Under the pieces are notes generated by a model that saw nothing but the letters and a program-made list of their open reading frames with translations, had not been told where the DNA came from and did not search any database. Below, one piece after another: positions 1 to 16,500 of a stretch of 26,164 bases of DNA. The stretch spans positions 1-26,164 of the IMG/VR virus record IMGVR_UViG_3300047283_000052. One strand, written 5' to 3'. Source of the DNA: a virus (Duplodnaviria; Caudoviricetes). How positions within the stretch are numbered: the first letter of the stretch is position 1; every line of letters starts with the position of its first letter. A program made the translations under genes and the position numbers.

Positions 1-44
1 GGTTCGTCCATAAGGACTACATAGTAGAGGGAGAGGCAGCGTGA
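1..44 (+). CDS. 3' end of a hypothetical phage gene, truncated by the window edge
   Basis: Frame starting at 3 reads FVHKDYIVEGEAA then TGA at 42-44, overlapping the next GTG (GTGA). Confidence 0.4.
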   Translation, partial: FVHKDYIVEGEAA

Positions 45-118
45 CCCTGCGCCAATTCCTGCAAGATAATTTCGGCTGGGATATTTACGACTGGGCCGAC
101 GATGAGATTAGATTTTAA
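41..118 (+). CDS. Small 25-aa hypothetical protein (not in the ORF track)
   Basis: GGAGAGG SD upstream of GTG at 41; MTLRQFLQDNFGWDIYDWADDEIRF; TAA at 116-118 overlaps the next RBS. It fills the gap exactly. Confidence 0.55.
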   Translation: MTLRQFLQDNFGWDIYDWADDEIRF

Positions 119-129
119 GGAGCAAGCAA

Positions 130-342
130 ATGATTGATGCAAAACCACGCTGGACGGTAACGCTGACCTATTACCATGGGGATGGGCCACGCAGCAGCAC
201 AATCAACATCCACGAACTTTACGAGCTTCAAGACATCGTAGAGCGCGGACCTAACTTCTACGCCATTGAGAGTATCGTGATAGGGATTAACACTGATGCA
301 GACCACCCCAAGATGACCGTGGAAGAGGCGGCGAAGCAATGA
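130..342 (+). CDS. Hypothetical protein, 70 aa
   Basis: AAGGAG SD at 117-122, ATG start, ATGA overlap with the next ORF. Confidence 0.75.
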   Translation: MIDAKPRWTVTLTYYHGDGPRSSTINIHELYELQDIVERGPNFYAIESIVIGINTDADHPKMTVEEAAKQ

Positions 343-467
343 CCGCAAACAACTGGCTATTCATAGTAGTCATGGGGGTGCTGGGCCTAACAGGATACCT
401 CATCGCAACGCGCCCAACCATAACGCCAGAAGAACGTAAAGAGATGGAAGAGGAGTGGTGGGGCTAA
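339..467 (+). CDS. Small 42-aa single-pass membrane protein (not in the ORF track)
   Basis: MTANNWLFIVVMGVLGLTGYLIATRPTITPEERKEMEEEWWG; ATGA overlap upstream and TAATG overlap with the polymerase ATG; hydrophobic N-terminal helix. Confidence 0.7.
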   Translation: MTANNWLFIVVMGVLGLTGYLIATRPTITPEERKEMEEEWWG

Positions 468-2332
468 TGAACATCCTAACCATCGATTTCGAGACCTACT
501 ACGACCGGACTTTCTCGCTCTCCAAGATGACGACCGAGGAGTATATCCGGGACTCTCAGTTTGAGACTATTGGCGTAGCTGTAAGGCGTAACGACGAGGA
601 CACAGAGTTTTTCTCCGGAACCAAAGAGCAGACCAAAGAGTGGCTGGATAAATGGGAATGGGGTGACGCTGTAGCTGTAGCGCACAATGCTGTGTTCGAT
701 ATGGCTATCCTTAACTGGCACTTTGACATCCGACCCAAGCGTATCGTGGACACGCTATCCATGCTTCGCGCCATCGACGGGCCTGATGCGGGTAACAGTC
801 TTGCTAAAGCTGCCGAGAGATATGGGCTGGGCGTCAAGGGCGACGAGGTTATCAATGCACTGGGTAAGCGGCGGTTGGATTTCACACGAGAGGAAATGTA
901 TTACTACGGTAAATACTGCATGAACGACGTGAAGCTTACCTACGACCTGTTCAAACGTATAGCGGTTGGCTTTCCTGCTAGTGAGCTACGTCTAATCGAC
1001 CTGACCATCCGGATGTTCACCGAGCCTGTGCTTGAGTTGGACAAGTGGACCCTGACGTCTCACTTGGTGAAGGTGCAGAACTTGAAGACCCAACTGCTGA
1101 ACAAGGCAGTCATCTCCAAAGAGAACCTGATGTCCAACCCCAAGCTGGCCGAGACACTGACTAGCCTAGGCGTTGAGCCGCCTATGAAGATTAGCCCTAC
1201 CACGGGCAAGGAGACCTATGCGTTCGCCAAGAACGACGAGGCTTTTAAGGCGCTTCTGGAGCATGACAGCCCGATTGTGCAAGCCATTGTGGCTGCGCGG
1301 CTAGGTGTTAAGTCCACGTTGGAAGAGAGCCGCACCGAGCGGTTCATCAAGATAGCCGAGCGCGGTACGCTGCCTGTGCCTCTACGCTACTACGCTGCAC
1401 ATACTGGGCGATGGGGAGGAGACGATAAGGTCAACCTTCAAAACCTACCAAGGAAATCACCCTTGAAGAAAGCAATTCTGCCGCCCGAAGGCTATGAGTT
1501 CATTGACTGCGACTCATCGCAAATCGAAGCGCGGACGTTGGCGTGGCTGGCTGGGCAACAAGACTTGGTGGAGTTCTTTGATAAGAACAACGCAGAGGTT
1601 GCAGCGGGTGTGAAGAAAGAGGACATGCAGTACGACCCGTACAAAATCATGGCTTCCCAGATTTACGGCATACCCGTCGATGACATAACAGATGACCAGC
1701 GGTTTGTGGGTAAGACCACTATCCTTGGCTGTGGCTACGGCATGGGCGCTGCCAAGTTCAAGGCGCAGCTAAAGACGTTCAACGTCGATATGGAGTTGGA
1801 AGAGTGTGAGCGTATCATTCACGTTTATCGCGCTACCTACCCCATGATACCGCTTCTGTGGCAACAGGCTGGCCGTGCTTTGAAAGCTATGATGCGTAAT
1901 GCAACGGCTCCGCTTGGTTGTGGCGAAGCCCTCACGGTGTGCGGCACTGCCGGTATCAAGCTACCCAATGGCCTCTCCCTTAAGTACCCCAACCTGCGCG
2001 AGAAGGCGCTATTGGGGAGCAGCCACAAGGAGATAGTCTACGATACCAAGAAGGGTAGGGCTATTATCCCTACGCGGATATATGGCGGGAAGCTTATCGA
2101 GAACGTATGCCAAGCACTAGCTCGTATCATAATCGGTGAGCAGATGCTGATGATTGCCCGTAAGTTGCGCGTGGTGATGACCGTGCATGACGCCGTGGGG
2201 GCGATTGCTCCTACCGAGAAAGCGGATGAGGCGCGGCGGTTCGTCGAGGACTGTATGCGTATACGCCCAAAGTGGGCGACGGCACTGCCGTTAAACTGTG
2301 AAAGCCACATAGGAGAAAGTTATGGCGGTTAA
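467..2332 (+). CDS. polA: Phage DNA polymerase, family A (3'-5' exonuclease plus polymerase, no 5'-3' exonuclease)
   Basis: ExoI IDFET, ExoII HNAVFD, ExoIII YCMND; HTGRWGG..NLQNLP; motif A DSSQIEAR; motif B RFVGKTTILGCGYG; motif C VHDA. ATG at 467 preferred over GTG 455. Confidence 0.96.
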   Translation: MNILTIDFETYYDRTFSLSKMTTEEYIRDSQFETIGVAVRRNDEDTEFFSGTKEQTKEWLDKWEWGDAVAVAHNAVFDMAILNWHFDIRPKRIVDTLSMLRAIDGPDAGNSLAKAAERYGLGVKGDEVINALGKRRLDFTREEMYYYGKYCMNDVKLTYDLFKRIAVGFPASELRLIDLTIRMFTEPVLELDKWTLTSHLVKVQNLKTQLLNKAVISKENLMSNPKLAETLTSLGVEPPMKISPTTGKETYAFAKNDEAFKALLEHDSPIVQAIVAARLGVKSTLEESRTERFIKIAERGTLPVPLRYYAAHTGRWGGDDKVNLQNLPRKSPLKKAILPPEGYEFIDCDSSQIEARTLAWLAGQQDLVEFFDKNNAEVAAGVKKEDMQYDPYKIMASQIYGIPVDDITDDQRFVGKTTILGCGYGMGAAKFKAQLKTFNVDMELEECERIIHVYRATYPMIPLLWQQAGRALKAMMRNATAPLGCGEALTVCGTAGIKLPNGLSLKYPNLREKALLGSSHKEIVYDTKKGRAIIPTRIYGGKLIENVCQALARIIIGEQMLMIARKLRVVMTVHDAVGAIAPTEKADEARRFVEDCMRIRPKWATALPLNCESHIGESYGG

Positions 2333-2540
2333 AGGAGTTAGGGTTAATGCCGAGCGAGACCTAGCAATCCATAGGGAACGCAAGGAGCAAGGAACCACGT
2401 TCGCAGCCTTGGGGCGAAAGTATGGGATTACCTGTGAGCGAGCGCGTCAGGTTGTAGGTAGGGAAGACCGCCGAGCAGCACAGCAAGCCCGTATTGACGA
2501 GGCACGTAAGCAGAGAGAAGGAGCAGACCATGTTGGTTAA
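2322..2540 (+). CDS. Sigma70 region 4.2-like HTH protein
   Basis: TFAALGRKYGITCERARQVV aligns without gaps to RpoD TLEEVGKQFDVTRERIRQIE; AGGAG SD at about 2310. Confidence 0.75.
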   Translation: MAVKGVRVNAERDLAIHRERKEQGTTFAALGRKYGITCERARQVVGREDRRAAQQARIDEARKQREGADHVG

Positions 2541-2931
2541 ACCTACAAATGAAACGCTGATTGACGACCTAGAGCTATCGGTACGGACGGCCAACTGCCT
2601 CCTTGGTATGTACAGAGACATACACGGGTGGCGACCATTTGAGCCAGCTGGCACGTTGCCCCTGCCAAAGGTTAAAGACCTGAGGCACATATCAGATGAA
2701 GAGATGCTGCGGACCCCTAACTTTGGTAGGAAGTCATTGGTCGAATGGAAACACATACTTTGGCTTGTTGACGAACCAGAGGGGACAACTGCCTCTAGCG
2801 AGTACCACACAATCCAAGAATTAAGGGATACCCTTTCACGTATCGACAGAACACGCAATGAGCTTGGTAGCTTTGTGCGCCGTGCGCGGGACCTTGTGGA
2901 TACGCTAGAGAAACTAGGAGCAGACCGATGA
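2530..2931 (+). CDS. RNA polymerase alpha subunit CTD-like protein with a C-terminal coiled coil
   Basis: IDDLELSVRTANCL...DL...EEMLRTPNFGRKSL matches the RpoA CTD signature; AAGGAG SD at 2518 supports ATG 2530. Confidence 0.88.
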   Translation: MLVKPTNETLIDDLELSVRTANCLLGMYRDIHGWRPFEPAGTLPLPKVKDLRHISDEEMLRTPNFGRKSLVEWKHILWLVDEPEGTTASSEYHTIQELRDTLSRIDRTRNELGSFVRRARDLVDTLEKLGADR

Positions 2932-3425
2932 GCGAACCACATGAGGTAGTAAAACTGCTACTAAAGCGGATGGAGAGTCATCCGGAGGAGTTTAAGAGTC
3001 ACGCAGACCGTTGGGATAGGGTTTTATCAGAGGTACTCGAACATGGGAACGAGGCCGATACAGCGGCAATCAACGCCGCTATGCGCGACATCCGGCTGAG
3101 CGAAGCCCACGAAGATATGATGGACGAGCTTTGCAATGGCGACGAGCGCCGCCGCAAGGAAGCGGAAGAGCATGAGTACGAGCGTAACCTTGCAAAGTCA
3201 CTGCTACTTACGAAGCAGCAGATGATGCAACAGGCGCAGCAAGGTTTACAGAACGCCTACTCAAACGCGTACGACGTGGACCGTGATATGTACCGGAGCG
3301 CAGGGGTTACACACATAGCGGGGCGGTCTCCGAACAGTCTACCTATAGCTAACGGCAGCACAGGCGCTACCCTTCCAAAATCAGCCATCAATCAAATCAA
3401 ACAAGCGCTAGGAATTAAAAAATGA
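2928..3425 (+). CDS. Hypothetical helical protein, 165 aa
   Basis: AGGAG SD, ATGA overlaps at both ends. Confidence 0.8.
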   Translation: MSEPHEVVKLLLKRMESHPEEFKSHADRWDRVLSEVLEHGNEADTAAINAAMRDIRLSEAHEDMMDELCNGDERRRKEAEEHEYERNLAKSLLLTKQQMMQQAQQGLQNAYSNAYDVDRDMYRSAGVTHIAGRSPNSLPIANGSTGATLPKSAINQIKQALGIKK

Positions 3426-4024
3426 GCGAGTATCAATTCACCAAGGACTGGTTCAACTGGGCACCGGAGGTCTGGCAACAGCTTATCCCGCACCTGCCAG
3501 AGCGTAAGGCTTTCCTTGAGATTGGTTCCTTTGAGGGCCGCAGCACCACTTGGATTGTTGAGAACATGATGGAGGATGGCGGTTGGATTGACTGCGTCGA
3601 TACATGGGAAGGTGGCGAGGAGCATGACGAAGAAGACATGGATGCAGTCTTACTTCGTTTCCGTGCTAATGCTAAGCTATTAGGAGCAAAGTACCCCGCC
3701 CGCACCGTGTGTGAACACCGAGAAACGTCCCAATGGACGTTGGCGCAATTCGTTGCCAAGACGTTTGGGAGCCACATCTACGACTTCATCTACATCGACG
3801 GGAGCCACATCGCCAAGGATGTGCTGACCGATGCGTGTATGGCTTGGCCATTGCTCAAGCCCAAGGGGATGATGGTGTTTGATGACTATCTATGGACACC
3901 GAACGCACGTGACATCTTGCACCGCCCTAAAGCAGCCATCGACGCCTTCACCAACATCTTCGCAGAGGAGGCAGAGATTGTCCACGTTGGATACCAGTTA
4001 GTCGTACGCAAGAAGGAGGAGTGA
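3422..4024 (+). CDS. Class I SAM-dependent methyltransferase (Methyltransf_24-like)
   Basis: FLEIGSFEGRST (motif I), YDFIYIDGSH, LLKPKGMMVFDDY. Confidence 0.9.
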   Translation: MSEYQFTKDWFNWAPEVWQQLIPHLPERKAFLEIGSFEGRSTTWIVENMMEDGGWIDCVDTWEGGEEHDEEDMDAVLLRFRANAKLLGAKYPARTVCEHRETSQWTLAQFVAKTFGSHIYDFIYIDGSHIAKDVLTDACMAWPLLKPKGMMVFDDYLWTPNARDILHRPKAAIDAFTNIFAEEAEIVHVGYQLVVRKKEE

Positions 4025-4026
4025 GT

Positions 4027-4230
4027 ATGTTTGATATAGCAAGCTTCGTGGTTGGATTTTTCAGTGGTGGGTTCCTCGGTGCCGTTGCCGCTATTATCGT
4101 AAAGACAGTATACATTAACCAGCTTGAAACCGACGTCTTGATACGCGACATGCTTATCGATGACGCGCAGAAAAAGCTGCGTAGGCTAACAGAACGCGAC
4201 TCCAGAGGGCGTTTCACAGGAGGTAAGTAG
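4027..4230 (+). CDS. Small membrane protein with C-terminal RDSRGRF motif
   Basis: AGGAGGAG SD; hydrophobic FVVGFFSGGFLGAVAAIIV segment; GTG 4021 is an alternative start. Confidence 0.75.
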   Translation: MFDIASFVVGFFSGGFLGAVAAIIVKTVYINQLETDVLIRDMLIDDAQKKLRRLTERDSRGRFTGGK

Positions 4231-4391
4231 TGCCCAAAAAAGTATGGACCCCAGAAAGGGATGCCGAATTATTGGAGTATTACAAGCACGGCCTAAGGCC
4301 AGCATATATAGCGGAACGAATGGGGCTTACGATTGCCGCCGTGGAAGGTCGCTATTACAAACTAAAGAGAAAGCAAAAAGCAAATGACTGA
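4230..4391 (+). CDS. 53-aa GcrA N-terminal-like / Myb-like HTH protein (not in the ORF track)
   Basis: AGGAGGT SD at 4218-4224, GTG overlapping the previous TAG; MPKKVWTPERDAELLEYYKHGLRPAYIAERMGLTIAAVEGRYYKL follows the WTxER..L..GL...IA..LG.T..AV.G pattern. Confidence 0.75.
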   Translation: MPKKVWTPERDAELLEYYKHGLRPAYIAERMGLTIAAVEGRYYKLKRKQKAND

Positions 4392-5142
4392 AGAAAAACG
4401 CCCAAGCCTGATGATTGCCACACCCATGTATGGGGGCATGTGTACAGGACACTATGTGCAAGGCTTGTTGATGACCATGAACAAGATGCGTGAGATTGGC
4501 GTCAACGTGGCATGGTGTCAGATTATGAACGAGAGCCTCATCACCCGTGCCCGTAACGAACTGGCCCGTGTGTTTCTTGAGAGCGACCATGACTATCTGA
4601 TGTTCATCGACGCCGACATTGGGTTCGATGGTGAAGCCATTGCGCACTTGATGCTGGCCGACAAAGATATCGTGTGCGGCATCTACCCCAAGAAGGAAGT
4701 GAACTGGGACAGCGTCAACCGCGCAGCAGTTGCCGGTAAGAAAGACCTAGAAGCCTATGCGGGGGCCTTTGTGTTCAACATGGTTGGGGGCGAAGACGCG
4801 CACAGCGACGAGGCAGGATGCATCGAGGTCCGCCATGGTGGCACTGGCTTCATGCTCATCAAACGGGGAGTGTTCGAGCATCTTATACCCCACGTTCCTA
4901 CCTACCGCATATCGTCGTTCAAAGACCCAGAGACAGACGAGTACGTCAAGCCTTTGACCCACGAGTTTTTCGCTACCAGCATAGACGCCAGCGGCGCGTT
5001 GCTAAGCGAAGATTACCATTTTTGCGAACTGTGGCGCAACCACGGTGGCAAAATACACGCCCACCCGTTCATCAAGCTGCACCATGTAGGCACGTATGTG
5101 TTTGGTGGTGACATCCTGCAGAGCGGCGGCAATCTTAAATAA
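4384..5142 (+). CDS. GT-A fold (GT2-like) glycosyltransferase
   Basis: LMIATPMYGG, NESLITRARN, MFIDAD (DxD), GTGFMLIKR, LSEDYHFC. Confidence 0.85.
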   Translation: MTEEKRPSLMIATPMYGGMCTGHYVQGLLMTMNKMREIGVNVAWCQIMNESLITRARNELARVFLESDHDYLMFIDADIGFDGEAIAHLMLADKDIVCGIYPKKEVNWDSVNRAAVAGKKDLEAYAGAFVFNMVGGEDAHSDEAGCIEVRHGGTGFMLIKRGVFEHLIPHVPTYRISSFKDPETDEYVKPLTHEFFATSIDASGALLSEDYHFCELWRNHGGKIHAHPFIKLHHVGTYVFGGDILQSGGNLK

Positions 5143-5154
5143 GGAGCAAATGAA

Positions 5155-5646
5155 ATGCAGAGAAAGAAAATATTAGGCGATAAGGTTATCAAGCTGTTGA
5201 AGCAGGGTTACTCACCTAGGGAAGTCACCCAGCGTATGGCGGTAAGCTACAACTACGCATGGAAGCTATGGAAGGATATGAGAGACCAAGCACAGGGTGA
5301 AGTCAAAGCCGCAGTTGAAGCTGTACAGGAAGCTGTACAGGGACTTAAGCCCGGAGAGTTTGTCCAAGCTGATACTAACGTAGACGCAATCCTCAACGAG
5401 CGTGCGGGTAACTATGGGCCGTTTGCTACTCAAGCAAAGATTGCACAGCGGCTGAAACATGTAGCTCACACTGCGGCTGGCGAACAAGGTAAGACCTTCG
5501 CTACCGACCAAGCCGAAGCACTGGACATGATATTCAGCAAGATTGGGCGTATCCTTAACGGTAACCCCGACCATGTAGATAGCTGGACCGATATAGCCGG
5601 ATATGCTACGTTAGTGGCTGACCGTCTCCAAGGGAAAATCAGATAG
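5155..5646 (+). CDS. N-terminal HTH-like segment fused to a DUF6378 / nucleotide-modification-associated-like helical domain
   Basis: ILNERAGNYG...KIGRILNG.PDHVDSWTDIAGYATL pattern; N-terminal GYSPREVTQRMAVSYNYAW; AAGGAG SD at 5141. Confidence 0.7.
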   Translation: MQRKKILGDKVIKLLKQGYSPREVTQRMAVSYNYAWKLWKDMRDQAQGEVKAAVEAVQEAVQGLKPGEFVQADTNVDAILNERAGNYGPFATQAKIAQRLKHVAHTAAGEQGKTFATDQAEALDMIFSKIGRILNGNPDHVDSWTDIAGYATLVADRLQGKIR

Positions 5647-5647
5647 C

Positions 5648-6322
5648 ATGACAGCGTGGTCCTACAGCAGCATCAAGACTTTCGAGCAATGCCCGAAGAA
5701 ATACTTCCACCTCAAAGTTGTGAAGGACGTCAAGGACGAGCCGGGAGAAGCCGCTGATTACGGGACCGCTGTACATTTAGCTGCCGAAGAGTTCATCCGA
5801 GATGGCAAGCCTGTCCCCGATAAGTTTGCGTATATGCGACCTATTGTGGAACGGCTTGCCAGTTTCTCCGGTGAGAAGCGTACCGAGATGAAGGTGGGTA
5901 TCCGGAAGACGGACACTGGCTACGAGCCTACTACCTTCTTCGCTAAGGACGTATGGTATCGCGGCATCATCGACTTGCTGATTATCAACGGTGAAAAGGC
6001 CCACCTACTCGACTATAAGACAGGTAAGAACGCCAAGTACGCTGATATGAAGCAGCTTGACCTGATGGCAGGTGCTATCTTCGTACATTATCCGCAGGTG
6101 CAGGAGATTAAATCCGGTCTGCTATATGTCGTATCAAATGAATTTCCTAAGAAAGTACACGTAAGAGAGAACATGGATCAGTATCTTTCCGTGTTTGATA
6201 CGCAGCTTGAGAACCTTAACGATGCGCTAGAAAATGGCGTGTTCAACCCGAAGTCTGGCCCTTTATGCGGCTGGTGTCCTGTGGTCGAGTGCGCACATTG
6301 GAGACCAAAGAGGAATAGATAA
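5648..6322 (+). CDS. PD-(D/E)XK (RecB/Cas4-like) exonuclease
   Basis: WSYSSIKTFEQCP, GTAVH, GIIDLL..LLDYKTG, C-terminal CGWCPVVEC (1+3 Cys, Fe-S-type arrangement). Confidence 0.9.
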   Translation: MTAWSYSSIKTFEQCPKKYFHLKVVKDVKDEPGEAADYGTAVHLAAEEFIRDGKPVPDKFAYMRPIVERLASFSGEKRTEMKVGIRKTDTGYEPTTFFAKDVWYRGIIDLLIINGEKAHLLDYKTGKNAKYADMKQLDLMAGAIFVHYPQVQEIKSGLLYVVSNEFPKKVHVRENMDQYLSVFDTQLENLNDALENGVFNPKSGPLCGWCPVVECAHWRPKRNR

Positions 6323-6690
6323 TGAGCAAACATGGATTTAAATTACTGAGCCGCGAGGAAATCAGGCAGCTGCCCATCGGCGCTACTGAGCGCGAACCAT
6401 ATGGTGCATATATCACGAAAGACGGTGAAGAGGTTCTGTTCGACCGAGGCTACAGCCCCATGCTGCGCCGCGATAAAGACAAGACCAACGTACGCAAAGC
6501 ATCTGGCTGGATTGATAACATCGCGGCGCAGGTGTGGTTCTATGAGGACGCAAATAGCCCACGGGGGCCGCGCCGTTTAAAGCGCACTAAGGATACCATT
6601 AGCCGCTGCGATATGGTGCTAGAAGCGTTCAACGCTGGGGAGTCAATCGCCCCCTATGTATGGAACGGAGATAAAAATGTCGTCCAATAA
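6322..6690 (+). CDS. Hypothetical protein, 122 aa
   Basis: TAATG overlap with the nuclease; GAGG SD. Confidence 0.7.
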   Translation: MSKHGFKLLSREEIRQLPIGATEREPYGAYITKDGEEVLFDRGYSPMLRRDKDKTNVRKASGWIDNIAAQVWFYEDANSPRGPRRLKRTKDTISRCDMVLEAFNAGESIAPYVWNGDKNVVQ

Positions 6691-6925
6691 TCAAGCTATG
6701 AGCAACGAAGCTACCGAAGACGATGCCGCAATGGCGTTTGTCCTACACGGCAAAATCGAAGAGTTAGTACGCAAGCACATACTGGAAGCCTTTAACGACC
6801 CCGACTTTATGGACCATCTGGCGATAGACTTTCTGCACCGCAAACTAGAAAAATATAGCTATGGCGGTGGGAGCTTTGCGCAAGCCGTTCGGGGTGTTAT
6901 AGCCCAGCAGATGAACAAATACTAA
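6677..6925 (+). CDS. Hypothetical protein
   Basis: GGAG SD at 6667-6670 supports ATG 6677 rather than 6656. Confidence 0.7.
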   Translation: MSSNNQAMSNEATEDDAAMAFVLHGKIEELVRKHILEAFNDPDFMDHLAIDFLHRKLEKYSYGGGSFAQAVRGVIAQQMNKY

Positions 6926-6936
6926 GGACGCTACCC

Positions 6937-7245
6937 ATGCCTTACAAAGACCCTAAGGACCGCAAGTATAACGGCGCTGCCGCAGCCTACGGGGCGCAGC
7001 CGGAGCAGAAGAAGAACCGCGCTGCGCGTAACGCCGCCCGTGCCAAGCTGATGAAGGCCGGTAAGGTCAAGAAGGGTGATGGCAAGGATGTCGCACATAA
7101 GGTCGCCTTCGACAAAGGCGGTTCGAACAAGGGCGGTGTGCGCGTAGAGAGCGCGTCAACTAATAGGTCGTTTAAACGCGACAGCAAACGCAACCTTGTG
7201 TCAGAGGTTAGCAAGCGGGAGCGCAAAAAGCGTGGAGATAGTTGA
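6937..7245 (+). CDS. Basic HNH-like endonuclease
   Basis: GDGKDVAHK...KGGSN...VRVESASTNRS resembles the compact phage HNH pattern; very Lys/Arg rich; AAGGA SD. Confidence 0.7.
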   Translation: MPYKDPKDRKYNGAAAAYGAQPEQKKNRAARNAARAKLMKAGKVKKGDGKDVAHKVAFDKGGSNKGGVRVESASTNRSFKRDSKRNLVSEVSKRERKKRGDS

Positions 7246-8791
7246 GAACAAAGCGCTGCTCATTGAGACAGCGGAACCCAACCTGATTACCGACAGCATA
7301 AAAAAGAGCGCGGTAGTTTCAACCAACGGGAGCAAATACAAAGTGCTAGTTAGATGGGGGCTAGAGGAAGCCCAGACCCTTGCCACGCTTGAGCATAAGG
7401 GCATACCCTCACCGATATTGCGGGATTACGCATGGACTGGGAAGCTCACTCCGTTTGAGCACCAGAAAACAACAGCGTCCTTCTTGACATTATACGACCG
7501 CGCTTTCTGCTTCAACGAGCAGGGTACAGGTAAGACAGCGTCAGTCATCTGGGCAGCAGACTATTTGATAAAGCGCAACGAGATTAAGCGTGTGCTGGTG
7601 CTGTGCCCCTTGTCGATTATGAAGTCAGCATGGCAGCAGGACTTGTTCAAGTTCGCTATGCACCGCTCGTGTGGCGTGGCCCATGGTGATGCCAAGACCC
7701 GCAAGAAAGTTGTCGCCGCTGGCGCAGAGTTCGTCATCGTTAACTTTGATGGGCTGGCTATCATCAAGGACGACATCATCAATGGCGGGTTCGACCTTAT
7801 CGTGGTGGACGAAGCGAACGCATATAAGAATGTGCAGACCAACCGCTGGAAGATACTGAACGAGATTGTCAAGGCAACTACACCCCGACTGTGGATGCTT
7901 ACTGGTACGCCAGCAGCACAATCACCGCTAGACGCCTACGGGCTAGCCAAGTTAGTTAACCCACGCAACTGCCCCACCTACTACAGCCACTTTCGTGCCG
8001 AGACGATGTATCCGGTGACGAAGTTTAAGTGGGCACCTAAGCCCGGGTCGGATGCTTATGTGCATAAGATGCTACAGCCAGCAATTCGGTTCGAGAAGAA
8101 AGACTGCCTAGACCTGCCGGATGTAACTTATCTTGACCGCGAAGCGCCGCTCACCGTGCAGCAAGCCAAATACTACAAGCAGCTTAAGACCGAGATGCTG
8201 CTTGAGGCAGCGGGTGAAGAGGTCAGCGCAGTGAACGCAGCGGTCAAGATTAACAAGCTACTCCAGATAAGCGGAGGTGCGGTGTATTCGGACACTGGCG
8301 AGGTCATAGAGTTCGATGTGTCCACTCGCTTGAACGCTGTGTTGGAAGTCATAGACGAGGCTACAAGCAAGGTGCTGGTCTTCGTACCGTTCACGCACAC
8401 TATTGAGTTACTAAAGGCCAAGCTGGAGAAGGAAGGCATCACATGCGATGTCATCAACGGCAAGGTTCCGGTCAATAAGCGCACCGACATTGTCACCGAG
8501 TTCCAGACCAAGAAGAACCCCCATGTGCTGCTCATCCAGCCACAGGCTGCATCGCACGGGCTTACGCTTACGGCAGCAGACACAATCATCTGGTACGCCC
8601 CAGTGACATCGGTGGAAACTTATCTACAGGCGAATGCCCGTATTAATCGCCCCGGGCAGAAAAACGCTATGACTATTGTGCATATCCGAGGTAGTGAGGT
8701 CGAGGGGAGGTTATACTCGATGCTGCGTGGCAACATCAACAATCACGAGCGTATCATAGATTTATACAGGGATGTGTTAAGTAACCCTTGA
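7232..8791 (+). CDS. SNF2-family (SF2) DNA helicase
   Basis: EQGTGKT, VVDEAN, LTGTP, HGLTL, QANARINRPGQ; GGGAG SD supports GTG 7232. Confidence 0.93.
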   Translation: MEIVENKALLIETAEPNLITDSIKKSAVVSTNGSKYKVLVRWGLEEAQTLATLEHKGIPSPILRDYAWTGKLTPFEHQKTTASFLTLYDRAFCFNEQGTGKTASVIWAADYLIKRNEIKRVLVLCPLSIMKSAWQQDLFKFAMHRSCGVAHGDAKTRKKVVAAGAEFVIVNFDGLAIIKDDIINGGFDLIVVDEANAYKNVQTNRWKILNEIVKATTPRLWMLTGTPAAQSPLDAYGLAKLVNPRNCPTYYSHFRAETMYPVTKFKWAPKPGSDAYVHKMLQPAIRFEKKDCLDLPDVTYLDREAPLTVQQAKYYKQLKTEMLLEAAGEEVSAVNAAVKINKLLQISGGAVYSDTGEVIEFDVSTRLNAVLEVIDEATSKVLVFVPFTHTIELLKAKLEKEGITCDVINGKVPVNKRTDIVTEFQTKKNPHVLLIQPQAASHGLTLTAADTIIWYAPVTSVETYLQANARINRPGQKNAMTIVHIRGSEVEGRLYSMLRGNINNHERIIDLYRDVLSNP

Positions 8792-8816
8792 CACTGTATA
8801 GTAAGTGGTCCATAGC
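8788..8816 (+). promoter_or_regulatory. Putative sigma70 promoter for the replication operon
   Basis: Perfect TTGACA at 8788-8793, 17-nt spacer, weak -10 (CATAGC), in one of the few intergenic gaps. Confidence 0.5.
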
Positions 8817-8842
8817 AGAGGGCCAACCATAAGGAGCAAAAC

Positions 8843-9250
8843 ATGGAAGAAGAAGTAATCCCAGCTGATAAGCTGGTAGCAGTTTATCGTCGCATCCGTT
8901 CAGCTATCGAAGACCTTGAAGCAGCCCATGCAAAAGAGGTCGAGGTCCTAAAGGGCAAGCTTGAGATGGTATCCGACAAGCTACTCAAGATATGCAATGA
9001 CCAGAACCTAGACAGCCTCCGCACTGCGGAAGGCACCGTGACACGGCGGGTTAAATCCCGTTACTGGACCACGGACTGGTCTACCATGTACAATTTCATC
9101 AAGGAACACGACGCCCCGTTTCTCTTAGAGCAGCGTATTCACAACGGGAATATGAAGCAGTTCCTCGAAGAAAACCCCGAACAGCATCCTGCTGGCTTAC
9201 AGATTGATAGCAAGTACGCTATCACTGTACGTAAACCTACAACCAAGTGA
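8843..9250 (+). CDS. Phage replication/recombination-region protein with an N-terminal coiled coil
   Basis: AAGGAG SD; helical N-terminus then SLRTAEGTV and DW..MYNFI motifs; function not assignable. Confidence 0.8.
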   Translation: MEEEVIPADKLVAVYRRIRSAIEDLEAAHAKEVEVLKGKLEMVSDKLLKICNDQNLDSLRTAEGTVTRRVKSRYWTTDWSTMYNFIKEHDAPFLLEQRIHNGNMKQFLEENPEQHPAGLQIDSKYAITVRKPTTK

Positions 9251-9258
9251 GAGACACA

Positions 9259-10152
9259 ATGAGCAATATCACAATTTTTGAAGACCAAAGCAGCCTACCC
9301 ACCGTCAAACGCGAGTCGCGGCTGGCGGACAAAATCGGTTCTGGCGCAAGCCTACGCCGCATTGCCACCAATACCAACGGCACATTTAAGCGTGTCGTCA
9401 ACGGTGAGCAGATTGGTAAGGCCGTACCGCATGAGATTAACATCATCGTCGTTGACATGCTCAAGGACGTGTCCCGTGAGTTTTATGCGTCTGACTACGA
9501 CCCAGAGGGTAAGGCTTCATTGCCTGATTGCTGGTCCGCTGATGGCCGCACTCCAGATGCTAAGGCTCCTAATCGTCAGGGTTCCGGCTGCGCCACATGC
9601 AGTATGAACATCGATGGTTCTGGCGCTAAAGGCCGTGGTAAGGCTTGCCGCTTCAAGCGCCGCATCGCGGTGTTGGTTGAGGGTGACCCGACTGGTGACA
9701 TCTACCAGATGAGCTTTGCTGCTAAGTCGCTATTCGGTAAGGGTGTCGGCAACGAGCATCCGTTCGAGAGCTACTGCAATTACCTAAAGGCTAACGGCGA
9801 AGCACCGGACACGGTGGTGACCAAGGTTATGTATGACCTCGACGCAGACACGCTGACTCTTAAGTTCAAAGCAGTGCGCCATCTGACACAGGACGAAGCT
9901 GACCTTGTTGATGCTGCCTTTGCCAGCGGTGAAGCACAGCGTTATATTCAGCTTACGACGTCCGAAGTTGATGGTGCCAAGGCACAGCCAGCAAAGGTTA
10001 TCGAAGCCCCCAAGGCTACGTTGTTTGACGAGCCGGAAGAGGAAGAAGCAGCGGAGCCGGTAAAGCGCGTTGCTAAGAAACCTGCTGTTGTCGATGCTCC
10101 CGTAGAAGACAAAGGTCTCTCGGACTTGCTCGGCGAGTGGGCGGAGGACTGA
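9259..10152 (+). CDS. Probable single-stranded DNA-binding protein
   Basis: Cys cluster (PDCWS, CATC, KACR), long acidic/Pro tail ending LLGEWAED, position upstream of the primase-helicase. Confidence 0.6.
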   Translation: MSNITIFEDQSSLPTVKRESRLADKIGSGASLRRIATNTNGTFKRVVNGEQIGKAVPHEINIIVVDMLKDVSREFYASDYDPEGKASLPDCWSADGRTPDAKAPNRQGSGCATCSMNIDGSGAKGRGKACRFKRRIAVLVEGDPTGDIYQMSFAAKSLFGKGVGNEHPFESYCNYLKANGEAPDTVVTKVMYDLDADTLTLKFKAVRHLTQDEADLVDAAFASGEAQRYIQLTTSEVDGAKAQPAKVIEAPKATLFDEPEEEEAAEPVKRVAKKPAVVDAPVEDKGLSDLLGEWAED

Positions 10153-10155
10153 GGC

Positions 10156-10401
10156 ATGTCGCATGGCTACACAATCAAAGTAGCTGATGCCATCAGGAAC
10201 GCTGACGGTAACTTACTAGGTGTAAAACTTGGGCGTGTTTGCTTGGACCGAGATATCTCGGTCCAAGAGGCCGCTCGGACCTTAGGGGTTACCCGTCAGA
10301 CGATATACCAGTGGTTCTGCGGAGAAACTAATCCACATGCGCAGCATATTGATATGATGTTGACGTGGCTGGACGACCTCGGCGAGATTACTAAGTCTTG
10401 A
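10156..10401 (+). CDS. XRE/Cro-like HTH DNA-binding protein
   Basis: ISVQEAARTLGVTRQTIYQWFCGETNP. Confidence 0.85.
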   Translation: MSHGYTIKVADAIRNADGNLLGVKLGRVCLDRDISVQEAARTLGVTRQTIYQWFCGETNPHAQHIDMMLTWLDDLGEITKS

Positions 10402-10455
10402 TTTTCAGCAAAAGATATCAACCTGCAGGTGTTTCCTGCGATAGTGGACTATACA

Positions 10456-13293
10456 ATGAATCACGTAGACCTTTTGAGTATCGTGCAGCCAGCTGATGGC
10501 TGGTTTGCCGTACTCGGTATCAAGGGTGAACGTGACGTAAGGCAGAAACTTGTAGCTACTAGGGAAGAGGTAGACACGCTTACAGAGAAGTATGTTGCGG
10601 AAGGTCGCAACGTATTCTTCGGTGTCGCCAAATATGAGACGGGGCAAAACAGGCAAAAGGAGAACGTCAAAGCTCTCCGTTCGTTCTGGGTGGATATTGA
10701 CTGCGGCCCTACGAAGGCTGTGGTCAGCGAGAAGACAGGGAGGCCAGACGGTTACATTGACCAAGACGCAGGGATAGCCGCACTTCGGCAGTTCTGCAAA
10801 ACGGTTGGGTTGCCAAAGCCGCTCGTTGTTAATTCGGGACGCGGTATACACGCATACTGGCCACTAACCCAAGACATAACCCGCCAAGAGTGGGAACCCG
10901 TAGCTAATAGGCTTTCCGCACTATGCGTTACGCACAACTTTTATGTAGACCCAGCGGTGTTCGAGGTAGCGCGTATCCTGCGTATACCGGGCACATTCAA
11001 TTTTAAGGATAACCCACCCAAGCAGGTGACGGTGATTTTTGACGCTGCTCCGGTAGAGTTCGAAGAGTTCCGTACGGCTCTTGGGGTTGAAGCTCCGCGT
11101 GAGATGGCTGTGCCTGAGCGGCGCAAGAGCAACATCGCCGAGAAGCTACAGGATAATAACATATCCCGTTTCTCCAAGATAATGCGGCGCAGCGCGAAGG
11201 GTGACGGCTGTCAGCAGCTGCTATCTGCCTATGAGGAACGAGCTTCGCTATCAGAAGTCCGGTGGTTTGACGCGTTGTCGATTGCCAAGTTCTGTGTGGA
11301 TAGGGACACTGCAATCCAGAAGATGTCCCACGGGCATCCGGATTACGACCCAGTTCGGGCGTTGGAGAAGACCAAGCACATCACGGGGCCACATAACTGT
11401 GCGACCTTTGAGCGCAATAATCCCGGGGGCTGTTATGGCTGTCCCTACTTGGGTAAGGTTAAGAACCCCATCGTGCTCGGTAGGGAAGTGGCAGAGACCG
11501 AGACAGAGGACGGAAACTATGTCGTCCCTGAGATGGGTGAAGACGATGTGCCTATCGACTATCGTATACCCGAGTACCCGTTCCCGTTCACACGGGGCAA
11601 GAAGGGCGGCATCTACCTCAAGCCAGAAAAAGACGAGGAGGTAGCTACTCTCGTCTATGAGCACGACTTATATCTCGTGAAGACGATGACTGACCCCAAA
11701 GAGGGTGACGTCTTAGTCATGCGGCTGCACCTACCCAAAGAAGGTGTGCGCGAGTTCGTCATCACGCAGAAACAAGCGGTTGGGGACGGGTCAGAGCTTC
11801 GTAAGGTGCTGGCAAGTAAGGGCGTAGCTGCCACCGAAAAGCAGTTCAAACAGCTCATCTTGTTCATAACCATGTCACTCAAGGCGATACAATATAAAAG
11901 GAAAGCAGAGCTTATGCGTATGCAGTTTGGCTGGGCTGATAACGACACCAAGTTTATCATCGGGGACCGTGAGATTTGCTTCGACGGTATATTTCATAGT
12001 CCGCCATCATCAACAACACGTGAGTGGGCTGAACACCTACACACAGCAGGTTCCTATGAGAAATGGCAGGAAGTCATTAACCTGTACGGACGTCCGGGGT
12101 TAGAGCCACATGCGTTCGCTGTGCTGACTGCGTTCGGGGCACCGCTCTTCAAGTTTACAGGGCAGTCGGGCGCAATCATAAACGTCATCCACCCCACATC
12201 AGGTACGGGTAAGACCACCCTGCTCCACGCAACGAACAGCATATACGGCCACCCCAAGGACCTATGTGCAATCAAGGGGGATACTGCCAACGCTAAGACG
12301 CAGCAGCTTGGCGTCTTTAACAACCTGCCGTTCTGCGTAGACGAAATCACCAACATGACAGGGGCGGGGCTGTCAGAGATGTCGTACAACATCAGCCAAG
12401 GGCGGGGTAAGAACCGCTTGAAGGCATCGTCCAACGAGCTTCGCATGAACACCACAAGGTGGCAGACGATGAGCCTTTGCTCATCCAACGCTTCCATCTA
12501 CGAAAAGCTGGGGCTGCACAAAAGTCACCCGGACGGTGAGATGATGCGTCTACTAGAGTATAAGATAGAACCCACTACTGCTATTCCGACCGACTACGCA
12601 AAGCAGATGTTCGACTTCCAGCTGCTCGAAAACTACGGTCATGCTGGACCTATCTATATCCAGTGGGTGATAAACAACCTCGAAGACGTTAAGAACACGC
12701 TCAAGGTGGTGCAGGAAAAGGTTGACCGTGAATTGAAGCTTACGCAGCGCGAACGCTTCTGGTCTGCCAAGCTGGCGGCTAACCTAACTGGCGGTATGAT
12801 TGCTCGTCGCCTTAAGATTATCGACTGGGATATGCAGCGCATCTATGCGTGGGCAACGAGCATGGTCCTCGAAACACGGCAGGATGTGGAAGCGCCGCAC
12901 ATCTCCACGATGGCGGTACTGGGCGACTATCTGAACCGGAATATCCACAACATCCTTGTCGTTAACAACGAGGCAGATAGCCGGTCTAACTTGGCACCAT
13001 CGCCTCTTCACGAACCCAAAGGTGCGCTATATGCTCGGTTTGAGCCGGATACTAAGCGCCTGTATGTGGACTATAAACACTTCCGCGAGGAGTGCATCAA
13101 GGCACAGATAAACTACAAAGAGATCATCAAGGACTTCAAGAAGTGTGGGGCTTACCTCAAGACAGACAACAAGCGTCTATCCAAGGGTATGGCGATGACG
13201 ACCCCGTCCGTATACTGCATCGAGTTCGATACCAGCGTGGGCGACTTCCTTGATATGGGTGCCTTCGTACCGGAGAATGAGGATGCAGATTGA
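10456..13293 (+). CDS. Primase-helicase fusion (RepB'/AEP-like primase plus DUF927-type helicase)
   Basis: WVDID, NSGRGIHAYW, RILRIPGTFN (primase); HNC..CYGC Cys cluster; QFGW, SGTGKTT, VDEITN (P-loop). ATG 10456 preferred. Confidence 0.88.
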   Translation: MNHVDLLSIVQPADGWFAVLGIKGERDVRQKLVATREEVDTLTEKYVAEGRNVFFGVAKYETGQNRQKENVKALRSFWVDIDCGPTKAVVSEKTGRPDGYIDQDAGIAALRQFCKTVGLPKPLVVNSGRGIHAYWPLTQDITRQEWEPVANRLSALCVTHNFYVDPAVFEVARILRIPGTFNFKDNPPKQVTVIFDAAPVEFEEFRTALGVEAPREMAVPERRKSNIAEKLQDNNISRFSKIMRRSAKGDGCQQLLSAYEERASLSEVRWFDALSIAKFCVDRDTAIQKMSHGHPDYDPVRALEKTKHITGPHNCATFERNNPGGCYGCPYLGKVKNPIVLGREVAETETEDGNYVVPEMGEDDVPIDYRIPEYPFPFTRGKKGGIYLKPEKDEEVATLVYEHDLYLVKTMTDPKEGDVLVMRLHLPKEGVREFVITQKQAVGDGSELRKVLASKGVAATEKQFKQLILFITMSLKAIQYKRKAELMRMQFGWADNDTKFIIGDREICFDGIFHSPPSSTTREWAEHLHTAGSYEKWQEVINLYGRPGLEPHAFAVLTAFGAPLFKFTGQSGAIINVIHPTSGTGKTTLLHATNSIYGHPKDLCAIKGDTANAKTQQLGVFNNLPFCVDEITNMTGAGLSEMSYNISQGRGKNRLKASSNELRMNTTRWQTMSLCSSNASIYEKLGLHKSHPDGEMMRLLEYKIEPTTAIPTDYAKQMFDFQLLENYGHAGPIYIQWVINNLEDVKNTLKVVQEKVDRELKLTQRERFWSAKLAANLTGGMIARRLKIIDWDMQRIYAWATSMVLETRQDVEAPHISTMAVLGDYLNRNIHNILVVNNEADSRSNLAPSPLHEPKGALYARFEPDTKRLYVDYKHFREECIKAQINYKEIIKDFKKCGAYLKTDNKRLSKGMAMTTPSVYCIEFDTSVGDFLDMGAFVPENEDAD

Positions 13294-13477
13294 GGGTGTC
13301 ACCTACGATGTGAACTGGAAAGCCTTCAAAAAAGGCACGGATATCTTCGTTCCGTGCCTAGACCCCAAAGCCGCAAAAGCACAACTGCTTGTGGTCACTA
13401 AACGCCTCAAGCTCAAGGTATTGATAAAAGTGACGGTCCAAGATGGAATTAGGGGTTTACGTGTCTGGCGTTTGTAG
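13283..13477 (+). CDS. Small basic protein ending in GLRVWRL
   Basis: GGAG SD 7 nt upstream of ATG 13283, overlapping the primase stop. Confidence 0.75.
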   Translation: MQIEGVTYDVNWKAFKKGTDIFVPCLDPKAAKAQLLVVTKRLKLKVLIKVTVQDGIRGLRVWRL

Positions 13478-13484
13478 GTATATG
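13451..13484 (+). promoter_or_regulatory. Putative promoter AGGGGTTTA-N19-TATA for the junction sRNA
   Basis: TTTACG-17-TATATG; same motif and spacing as 25059-25092 on the - strand. Confidence 0.5.
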
Positions 13485-13490
13485 TGCCCC

Positions 13491-13562
13491 CGCAAGTTTT
13501 GCTCCTTGCAAGGTTGATACCTTTCTACCCCTCATCGGACCTCCCCCGATGAGGGGTTTTTT
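13491..13562 (+). ncRNA. Putative trans-acting antisense sRNA, about 72 nt
   Basis: Non-coding, bounded by a promoter-like motif and a terminator; complementary to leaders at 8824-8845 and 10411-10429; short hairpins GCAAG/CTTGC and AAGGT/ACCTT. Confidence 0.55.
13527..13562 (+). terminator. Rho-independent terminator
   Basis: 12-bp perfect stem ACCCCTCATCGG / CCGATGAGGGGT, loop ACCTCCC, followed by a T run. Confidence 0.92.
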
Positions 13563-16500
13563 ATTTCGGATTAAGCAGTTTGTCCGCGTATAAGGACTCA
13601 ACTTCATTAAGCCCCATGCCTTGGATATCGTACTTCGCTTCTGCCGCAGAGCTAGTCAGTGACCTGTACATATTGGCATAGGAGATGCCGAAATATGGGT
13701 TCCCAACCTTCTTGTTAAACTCCATGATATCCTCGACCGCCTCACGTGCTTTCTCTTGCCCGTCTGCGTCACCGTTCTGGATGCGGCGCACGGCTTGCTT
13801 GTAAGCACCGAGCAACTCGGTCTTCTCATCTTTAAGCCCCTCGTAGCGGTTCAGCACGTCGCGGTTCTGCTGCTGCACCTTCGCAACCTGCGTCGGGTTA
13901 AAGCCTAATGCGGCACCGATAATCTCAGCGTTACTGATATCTTCCGCTCTCAGTTTAATCTTCTCTGTTTGGGTACGTACACCCTCTTCGCTGAGCCTGT
14001 ACGCTTTGATTGGTGCGCGGACCATAGCCGGAAGGCCAAGCTCAAGACCCTTAAGCACGTCGCCCTTGGCGAACTCTTCACCCATAGCCACCATGTTGAG
14101 CGATGCAGACGCACCGGGGATATTCTCCACCAACGCGTTGTTGACCGTCTGCGTCCATGTTTCCGCATCCTTAGGTGAACGGAACCACATACCCGCAAGG
14201 TCGAGCGAGACACGAGAACCAAAGTTCCACCCCGTTGCTTCCGACACAGCACCGTTGAGGATGATGTCGCTTAGTTTAATCTGCTTGCCGTTAGCAGCAG
14301 TGAGCATGGGCTGCCCGAAGTGCTCCGGTAGCCACTCGTAGCGGAACTGCATCTCGACACTGTCGGCTGTCAGCGGGTTCTCCAACATCCGCTTCTTACG
14401 GTCTTCGTCATCGTCAGTTGCGTCTTGGAGCGCTTGAAGCGTCATCATACCCAGCGTGTACAGCGGTAGGCCGACCACACCACCCATCAAGAAGCCCATG
14501 CCCAGAACGCCGGTCATTTCTTTCATAGCGGCAGTGCGCTCATCACGCGGTGTGTTCTTGCCGAAGATAGCTCGCGTTGCCTGCACAAAGAAGGTCGTGG
14601 TGATAACAGAGTATTGTTTAAACAAGAACAAAGCCCGGGCAAGCTCACTGCCTTTCATCACGGGAGGCCGGTTGAGGTTAGTGTAGTTACCCAATGTGTA
14701 GTTCACGGTGTCCTTGGCAGCGATGATAGCCTTGTTCTGCCGTTCCTCAGAGGACAGCCCTGCATTGGCCAGCTTGTCATACTCAAGGTCGTACGTAGCC
14801 ATAAAGGCCACTTCGCGGGTCAGCTGCTCCGACGTATCAAACAGGTACGTCATAGCATCATAAATCTTTTCACGAGTTTCCGCCACGCTACTTTCCAGCC
14901 CTGACAGCGCAGTGCGCTTATCACCCATAAGAAACTCCGACAGTGGCATAATCAGGCCATACTCGTTCGTCGCACGGGTCAGTGCATCACGGTGCCGCCC
15001 GCTGTTCTTTATGATATTTGACTCCATAAGGGTCGGAATGCGGAAGGTCTTACGCTTGCCTTTTTCTTTGTTCTCAAACTTAGGGAGGTTTTTGAACACG
15101 TTCATGTACCGACCCATGGCACGGGTCGTATTAGCCATTCCGTACTTACCCCATAGATTAGGTGCTACACGCATAGGCAGAGCGGTAACCTGTACGAGTG
15201 CAGTAGCCGGGGCGGTTAGGAACGACACGAACGCAAGCTGGTTCATCCACGGAACAATCTTGGTCGCAAGGCCGCTTGGTTGTGGCTCCATCTCCCCTTC
15301 GATGCGTTTTTCGATGCTCGAAATAAAGTCGCGTGCCAGCGTTTGCTCGCTTGAGGATATCGAAATCTTATCCTCTTCGTCCTTACCAACATCCGGAACC
15401 GCCCCGATGGACTTCTTTGCAGCCTGAATAGCGCGGTCAATCTCAGGCGAATAACGCAACCGAGAGACGTCCGAAGCATATTCTTCAGCCGTTGCGCCAA
15501 ACGTACGTAGTATGTCTGAACTCCATCCGAGGCGGTTCTTGGACTTGATAAACTGCTTACGCCCAGACCCTTCCGGGGTGTTGAGCAGGTGCATCTGGTA
15601 CACATCGTTGCGAAGCTGGTTTTTCTTAGCTTCCGTAAATGTGCCAACGTCAATTTCTGAAATCTTGTTCAGGATTTTGATGAACGCATTATCAGCATCA
15701 AAGTCGTCACCAAGCTGCGTCTTGACATCGTTACCCGCCTGTATGTGGTTTGCATTTTCTTTGTCTAGATTAAACTGTTTCGCAGCGGCTTCCATGTCAG
15801 CGTCACGTTCCGCCATGGTTTCGTAGAAACGCAGGATAGGTTCGCCATATGGGGTTTTCTTGATGCGTAGCCAGTAGTTACCATAACGACGCTTGGGAAA
15901 ATACTCACGATGGAACAGACCCAGCGGCACCTCAGGGTAATCTAAATGTGCATCTTCTTTGCTAGGTGCATTAACCTTGTCGTTCAGGCGCTCCTGCTCA
16001 GCCCGTATAGCGATGGCCATCTTAGAAACGGTTTCGTCAGAAAGTCCAGCGTCACGCAGGTTTTCAATCCGCTTGTCCATCAGATACTGACGCCGCAGTT
16101 GCATGTCACGATTTGCATTACGGATACGCGTGTACAACTTACGCCCTTCTGCCCCGAGTTTGCTCAGGATGTCCAGCGCACCGTCAATCTCAGCTTCCCG
16201 CTTGGCGAGCTTACCTTCAAACTTTTTCTTATTCTCGGGGGTAAGAGCAGGGTCCTTTAGCAGCTTAGTGTACCTGCGCCAGATTTGGTCGGTCTTAAGC
16301 GCATCCTCACGAGACTTTGCGTCCATAAGGCTGACCATATCTATGTTGTAATAATTGCCATGGTCCATGGCAACTGGGAGCGCTTTGCGCTTTTCCTTAC
16401 CAACCATTATAGGGTCTGCATCGCTAAGCAGGTAGCTCTTGAGGTCGGATGTTATCCTGTTCAACAGGCGGCGCGTGGCAGCGCGGGTACCGTTCATCTT

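Follow-up and report, generated by a model that had tools for sequence, protein, structure and literature searches.

The tailed-phage record IMGVR_UViG_3300047283_000052 (Duplodnaviria; Caudoviricetes), a linear virus record of 26,164 bases which is about 42% complete and was analysed as a whole (the window), encodes a free copy of the RNA polymerase α subunit's C-terminal domain (α-CTD), preceded by a small helix-turn-helix (HTH) gene. The product of 2530-2931 combines a true α-CTD of helix-hairpin-helix fold with a long C-terminal heptad helix, and the gene is gained and lost separately from the HTH gene in related phages. We tentatively favour, at a probability of roughly 0.42, a model according to which the protein acts as a stand-alone coiled-coil pair of α-CTDs competing for DNA resembling upstream promoter (UP) elements, independently of the HTH protein.

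A free α-CTD with an intact DNA-binding face

The gene and the parts of its product are as follows.
2530..2931, + strand: free α-CTD with a C-terminal heptad helix, 133 amino acids; accessory and swappable (Pfam, PDB search, AlphaFold/Foldseek)
2554..2760, + strand: α-CTD domain, residues 9-77, of alphaproteobacterial type, with intact DNA-binding face
2602..2670, + strand: loop formed by residues 25-47, enlarged by 16 residues net and varying in length across the family
2791..2925, + strand: residues 88-132, forming a long amphipathic helix in which hydrophobic positions recur at a conserved 3-4 spacing; predicted to be a coiled coil

An earlier note, made from the sequence alone, had described the product as an RpoA CTD-like domain, and this identification stands. 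Pfam RNA_pol_A_CTD (PF03118) recognises it at 47 bits (E 2.1e-12), passing the gathering cut-off of 23.8, and all 25 sequence matches in the PDB are α subunits, the best being 9ZUM, described as the Caulobacter crescentus α-CTD on A/T-rich DNA (PMC13004042). The AlphaFold model of the 133-residue protein (pLDDT 82, pTM 0.58) finds α-CTDs as its top Foldseek matches with a probability of 1.0 and a root-mean-square deviation of 1.6 Å over about 70 columns; the best E-value is 0.007, none of the Foldseek matches reaching 0.001. Translation starts at the ATG at 2530, preceded by a ribosome-binding site (RBS), GGAG, at 2520. A longer reading from a TTG at 2494 was rejected because the RBS and the starts of the homologues favour 2530, and the opposite-strand open reading frame (ORF) 2361-2942 was dismissed as a gene since it is shortened in the related locus L002.

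The residue numbering and the net length of the insertion follow from the alignment of residues 11-77 to E. coli α 257-307. As the earlier note had read from a manual alignment, all eight α positions known for contacts to UP DNA and to σ70 are kept, with D13, E15, R19, N22, N64, G66, K68 and S69 corresponding to E. coli D259, E261, R265, N268, N294, G296, K298 and S299. Across 34 family members the DNA face is strongly conserved (R265 in 34, G296 in 34, N294 in 33, S299 in 32, Lys or Arg at 298 in 29, N268 in 27), and position 259 is Asp or Glu in 30 of the 33 members having it and position 261 Glu or Asp in 29 of 34, including loci lacking the HTH gene. Positions 285 and 287, which we take to be part of the CRP-contact patch, are variable across the family. 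In 9ZUM the equivalent C. crescentus residues are described as touching A/T-rich DNA (PMC13004042). The ratio of non-synonymous to synonymous differences (pN/pS) of the gene is 0.13-0.50 in four homologue pairs.

Compared with 118 host domains, the core of the domain reaches 66% identity over 44 positions, a figure inflated by the choice of these domains through a shared 13-residue motif. Among 80 listed of the 120 motif-bearing records found in 1/64 parts of the collection, 74 are alphaproteobacterial, five belong to unassigned proteobacteria and one is a Lactobacillus bin. As the motif occurs mostly in alphaproteobacterial records, the host is likely an alphaproteobacterium, judging by sequence, which fits the presence of a GcrA-like HTH at 4230-4391 (a 53-residue GcrA/Myb-like protein common in the clade, with Pfam GcrA at E 8e-4, below the cut-off, and PHROG 323). 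Family members were found neither in the metagenome contigs nor in the GTDB genomes or cultured phages searched, so that no prophage gives a clue to the host. A complete relative, L082, carries at 1837-2214, upstream of its DNA polymerase gene polA, a second and more host-like α-CTD with its own helical tail, a sign that this clade may have captured the domain repeatedly.

Insertion and C-terminal helix

The protein shows no match to the α N-terminal domain (α-NTD) family, and the family members begin at the CTD; it is thus not an RpoA and, without α-NTD or linker, cannot join core polymerase. Two further features were absent from the earlier account, namely the net insertion of 16 residues and a 45-residue helix, seen in the alignment and in the AlphaFold model, standing in place of α 308-329. 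Within this helix, large hydrophobic residues occupy positions 95, 98, 102, 105, 112, 116, 122 and 123 in 92-100% of the 24 sequences compared, whose identities go down to 26%, and position 109 is Arg or His. With its conserved heptad pattern on one long helix, the segment 88-132 is likely a coiled coil, as predicted from sequence and model, that would pair two copies of the protein.

The preceding helix-turn-helix gene

Two genes lie upstream of the α-CTD gene.
455..2332, + strand: family A DNA polymerase (polA), anchor of the variable slot (profile matches)
2322..2540, + strand: stand-alone 72-residue HTH protein (σ4.2/Mor-type) with the HTH spanning residues 26-46 and a tail that is basic and helical; accessory and swappable

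The earlier note had assigned the HTH to σ70 region 4.2, which is borne out only weakly. Of the 60 PDB rows shown for a profile built from 20 members, 59 are σ factors, with a best E of 2.9e-4. The single protein falls below the Pfam cut-offs, both for Sigma70_r4 (PF04545; 15.6 bits, E 0.012, cut-off 24.1) and for Mor (PF08765; 22.4 bits, cut-off 24.9, matching only profile positions 59-104 of 107), and its match to the late-activator family PHROG 836 is weak. Of the two residues of σ70 reading -35 bases, E585 is represented by Glu39 (Glu in 14 of 20 homologues) and R584 is replaced by Cys38 (Arg in 8, Pro in 6, Gly in 5 and Cys in 1 of the 20), so that the two do not occur together in the HTH protein; few columns in the family vary as much as position 584. 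In σ70, the exchange R584C is described as relaxing recognition at -31 (PMC2613000).

The Arg claimed at the position equivalent to σ70 R603 is indeed in register (Arg57, offset 546), and 16 of 20 close homologues have Arg there; as evidence for a σ-like contact it is weak because the tail consists of 30% Arg, the His-Pro-Ser turn preceding R603 is changed to Gln-Gln-Ala, and the hydrophobic positions L595 and L598, which presumably function in binding the β-flap tip, are Asp49 and Ala52. In two other paired loci the position is Tyr (L069) and Gly (L129), as judged by eye.

Residues 38-39 (2433-2438), in the recognition helix, vary within a family that is otherwise 84% conserved. The genes of the window and of L001 differ by four non-synonymous and no synonymous changes, which together with the variable recognition helix hints at a shifting DNA specificity; pN/pS is 0.16-0.28 in three homologue pairs. 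As far as the sequence tells, the HTH protein most likely acts as a small regulator that binds DNA, with a specificity that would have drifted from the -35 element. A search of metagenomes (1/64 parts) returned seven distant HTH loci. In the relatives L064 (1165-1836) and L087 (6469-7107), the same slot after polA holds a larger HTH protein with a σ4-like C-terminal end.

Distribution of the two genes

The two ORFs, 2322-2540 and 2530-2931, lie on the + strand and overlap by 11 nt, as the earlier note had seen. It had proposed further that they form one UP/-35-binding complex, and this proposal fails on the linkage expected for it in other phages. The family alignment gave 16 loci in addition to the window, from which we excluded L139, whose upstream side is cut, and, for their different layouts, L144 and L145. 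Among the resulting 14 loci, the HTH gene precedes the α-CTD gene in only four (window, L001, L132, L143), always in this order, and the α-CTD gene follows polA directly in the other ten; merging near-identical loci leaves three with and six without HTH. Among polA-anchored loci, the best 80 of 416, seven have the α-CTD gene, five the HTH gene and two both, and 50 hand-picked whole records gave corresponding numbers of 13, eight and three. The HTH gene occurs without the α-CTD gene in L004, L005, L054, L068 and L075, and the single-gene genomes include records 84-100% complete: G014 (98%) carries the HTH alone, G040 (84%) and G026 (100%) carry the α-CTD alone.

The same picture emerges from close comparisons. 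L002 carries a 97.5% identical α-CTD gene straight after polA and no HTH gene, the nearest polA relative, L052 (94%), has neither gene, and in L069 the α-CTD gene is 93.5% identical to one from an HTH-less locus and the HTH gene 87.7% identical to one from a locus without α-CTD. All four presence states are scattered over a polA tree built from the 71 distinct ones among 86 sequences, with short ones excluded. The two genes are hence gained and lost separately in a slot after polA, an obligate two-gene system is not supported, and, since the HTH gene comes and goes separately in relatives, they probably do not make up a single machine.

The gene borders and the following gene are as listed.
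2312..2324, + strand: polA/HTH junction, where the end of polA contains the RBS and ATG; a degenerate version of the extended RBS tag of the clade
2518..2532, + strand: HTH/α-CTD junction, extended RBS tag and ATG
2915..2930, + strand: junction of the α-CTD gene and the next gene, with a 10-bp direct repeat of 2520-2529
2928..3425, + strand: clade backbone gene downstream of the α-CTD gene, function not assigned

The repeat at 2915-2930 means that the α-CTD gene is bounded by repeats. In this clade the junction consists of an RBS and an ATG inside the upstream gene, and polA and the HTH gene end in the same sequence; the sequence of the HTH/α-CTD junction also joins polA directly to the α-CTD gene in L002. 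We considered the 11-nt overlap as a sign of coupling and rejected it, as polA carries the same junction. The extended RBS tag stands before five gene starts of the + arm (117-129, 2518-2529, 2915-2927, 5141-5154 and 8831-8842), and its reverse complement is found at 13497-13507, just before a terminator-like hairpin at 13527-13557.

Possible functions

According to the model we favour, the coiled coil would replace the α-NTD dimer and pair two α-CTD copies, the two heads would thereby gain avidity for A/T-rich upstream promoter DNA, and the pair would compete with the α-CTDs of the host polymerase at strong, UP-dependent promoters, so that the output of such promoters, e.g. those of rRNA, would fall during infection. 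Of the effects on the host which the earlier note had considered for the two proteins together, promoter occlusion and activator titration, each by the α-CTD protein alone, would be the leading ideas on the present sequence evidence.

Several points weigh against competition for UP-like DNA. The host α-CTDs are tethered to polymerase and have an advantage of local concentration. The presence of the gene in only seven of the best 80 of 416 polA loci means that its function is dispensable, and the kept face is also used by the activator DriD, so that its conservation is no pointer to DNA in particular. In cultured phages, α-CTDs are joined to unrelated domains, and this may speak for a generic module instead of promoter competition. 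Co-occurrence with the HTH gene in the 80 loci, which are related, partly redundant and partly cut, is above the naive expectation (2 versus 0.3-0.4; hypergeometric p 0.03-0.06), though not so within the subclade of about 32 loci, counted by eye, that holds both genes (p 0.16-0.30). In L001 the 610-bp two-gene block shows 98.2% identity, as against 69% and 75% for the flanks there, and contigs from two other studies carry the block with two differences over 641 bases and 14 over 734. The block moved recently as a unit, which does not prove a joint function, given that linkage alone makes neighbours move together. Both genes are missing from one contig (4/21 runs compared).

As the main alternative, which we regard as unlikely, the protein might serve as a decoy for host activators docking on the DNA face. 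DriD, a Caulobacter activator of the WYL type sensing single-stranded DNA, is described as touching α-CTD residues N295, R298, K299, E303, E306 and K272 as a DNA mimic (PMC13004042), and a free domain of alphaproteobacterial type could blunt the damage response, i.e. division block and BapE nuclease, during infection. N295, R298, K299 and E303 are represented here by N64, R67, K68 and E72, the last being acidic (Glu or Asp) in all 34 family members, even though E303 is described as facing solvent in the DNA complex (PMC13004042). Position E302/303 is, however, invariant in 118 of 118 host domains and may thus be structural, and the E306 and K272 positions are lost (H75 and L25) with the insertion beginning at the K272 loop. 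We consider it improbable that the α-CTD works optionally with the HTH protein, the two occupying adjacent sites with Arg57 contacting Asp13/Glu15 in a polymerase-free -35/UP complex, modelled on the D259/E261-R603 contact established in E. coli (PMC5511352). The constant gene order, the recent transfer of the whole block, the prevalence of Arg57 and the existence of σ4-α-CTD fusions in other phages (e.g. L144, P0083 and P0081) speak for such a pair, against which stand the majority of carriers having one gene alone, the Tyr and Gly at the R603 position, the retention of D13/E15 in HTH-less loci, the loss of R584 to a Cys that is variable in homologues, the origin of the fusions in other phage groups with divergent α-CTDs and, as weak evidence, the lack of an HTH-α-CTD fusion among the longer HTH forms. 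The extended version, according to which the coiled-coil α-CTD pair docks beside a co-inherited σ4-like HTH as a split form of the fusions and acts by mimicry to shut or reroute host promoters, without modifying RNA polymerase, seems equally doubtful to us.

Only slightly more remote is a role as activator, in which a dimer bound upstream of phage promoters would recruit host holoenzyme through a contact of Asp13/Glu15 with σ region 4. The acidic pair is mostly kept, also where the phage HTH is absent, and none of the 25 ORFs scanned in the 42% complete record encodes an RNA polymerase. The pair is, however, invariant in host domains and may be inherited structure, most relatives do not have the α-CTD gene, unlike what is expected of an essential activator, and a scan of 1-14000 for promoters and terminators gave neither an excess over shuffles (8 promoter sites versus 10.8) nor a candidate site. 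About as improbable as the optional pair is a generic helix-hairpin-helix module unconnected to promoters, which would serve to coat phage DNA, to organise it, or to recruit a partner to DNA. It would agree with the fusions of α-CTDs to unrelated partners (CcrColossus gp133, V16 gp23, Mecenats66, P0054, L074); the 66% core identity to host domains exceeds what a generic module needs, and the gene is small, accessory and early. Competition of a free α-CTD pair for UP-like DNA keeps our preference among these readings.

Genomic context

The best-matching sequencing runs for the window are freshwater metagenomes, of which two may be where the DNA came from, and two RNA runs contained fractions of 0.05 and 0.00 of its sequence words. 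The + arm encodes polA, a methyltransferase, a glycosyltransferase-like protein, an exonuclease, an SNF2 helicase and a primase-like protein, and the - arm carries virion-type genes. The cultured relatives closest in polA (Rhizobium RHph_TM and Pseudomonas KPP25-like phages) share only 34-35% identity. The product of the backbone gene 2928-3425 has a conserved, helical N-terminal domain and a Gln-rich tail; this N-terminal domain is fused to an α-CTD twice, in two lineages (P0054 and L074:6231-6878), and once to the HTH (P0199). The ESM Atlas returned nothing usable for this product and only leads below 0.9 for the α-CTD protein. On the - strand, 13561-20262 encodes a protein of 2233 residues, the C-terminal third of which matches PHROG 10089, DarB-like antirestriction.

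Comparison with known systems

The phage protein shares with the α-CTD of RpoA (PF03118; 9ZUM, E. coli 1LB2 and 3N97) the fold, the six-residue DNA face and the D259/E261 pair. Unlike RpoA it has no α-NTD or linker, contains the 16-residue insertion and an invariant Trp at the I303 position, and carries the heptad helix in place of 308-329. The HTH protein has in common with σ70 region 4.2 (PF04545) and with the phage Mu Mor/C activators (PF08765, PHROG 836) the pattern of the σ4.2 recognition helix, and differs from them by staying below the Pfam cut-offs, by the missing N-terminal part of Mor, by the changed R584 and by the loss of L595, L598 and the His-Pro-Ser turn.

Phage α-CTDs are already on record as annotation. 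The Caulobacter phage CcrColossus encodes gp133 (AFU88003.1), annotated as an α-CTD in GenBank, and the domain is also found in the CcrPW homologue, in gp23 of Ruegeria phage vB_RpoS-V16 and in ORF34 of Morganella phage Mecenats66. In gp133 (L288:2477-3331) the α-CTD is joined to a tRNA-synthetase-like domain just before the lysis genes, in V16 gp23 (L287:2423-3289) to a domain annotated as pyrophosphatase, and in the Mecenats66 protein (L289:1165-1728) to NinX. All of these proteins, like ours, contain an α-CTD without NTD; unlike ours, they are fused to other domains and have no coiled-coil tail. The main text of the CcrColossus genome paper (PMC3556154) mentions neither gp133 nor RpoA, and in the open-access literature searched we found no study of a phage-encoded α-CTD. 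The family of phage proteins combining α-CTD and coiled coil is probably undescribed and probably consists of transcription competitors or decoys.

Proteins combining both domain types in one chain form another point of comparison. σ4-α-CTD fusions (L025-L032, L035, L144, P0081 and P0083, with large forms in P0063, P0066, P0067, P0080 and P0091) come from other phages or bacteria and have no coiled-coil tail. The viral single-chain examples (L025-L032, L036, L041, L042, L035, L018/L019 and L144) have no cultured phage match, and in L030 the fusion gene (2995-3414) sits between primase-like and UvrD-like genes. With our own hidden Markov model an α-CTD-like sequence fused to the HTH was detected in 15 of 46 distant HTH loci, a partly circular count as four of them were used to build the model; Pfam finds both domains in three of four fusions tested. 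We did not find the α-CTD family of the window fused to its own HTH, and a search for longer HTH forms gave fusions to another HTH and to the downstream gene, none to an α-CTD (2 matches among 8000 scored, which is weak evidence). Aravind and Iyer (2012) reportedly described α-CTD and σ domains in bacterial proteins outside RNA polymerase. An α-CTD-like domain outside RpoA is also described for PglW of type-2 BREX (PMC12839542).

As a two-gene complex is not required and free α-CTDs recur in phages, the finding is worth less than first thought. The family nevertheless poses a direct test of a free, paired α-CTD against a tethered one, or of a sponge for activators such as DriD, and the 133-residue protein can be assayed in Caulobacter or E. 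coli, with related domains at hand in the cultured phages CcrColossus and CcrPW. Phages are known to disable the contact between α-CTD and UP DNA by modification, cleavage or steric block: G1 gp67, the T4 ADP-ribosylation of R265 and LUZ19 Rac are described as silencing it (PMC3694059, PMC7552054). The likely outcome, loss of UP-dependent host transcription, would be the same as for the phage α-CTD; these factors bind σ, modify α or cut α, and none of them is an α-CTD homologue, so that competition by a phage-encoded copy of the domain itself would, if true, add a further route to the same end.

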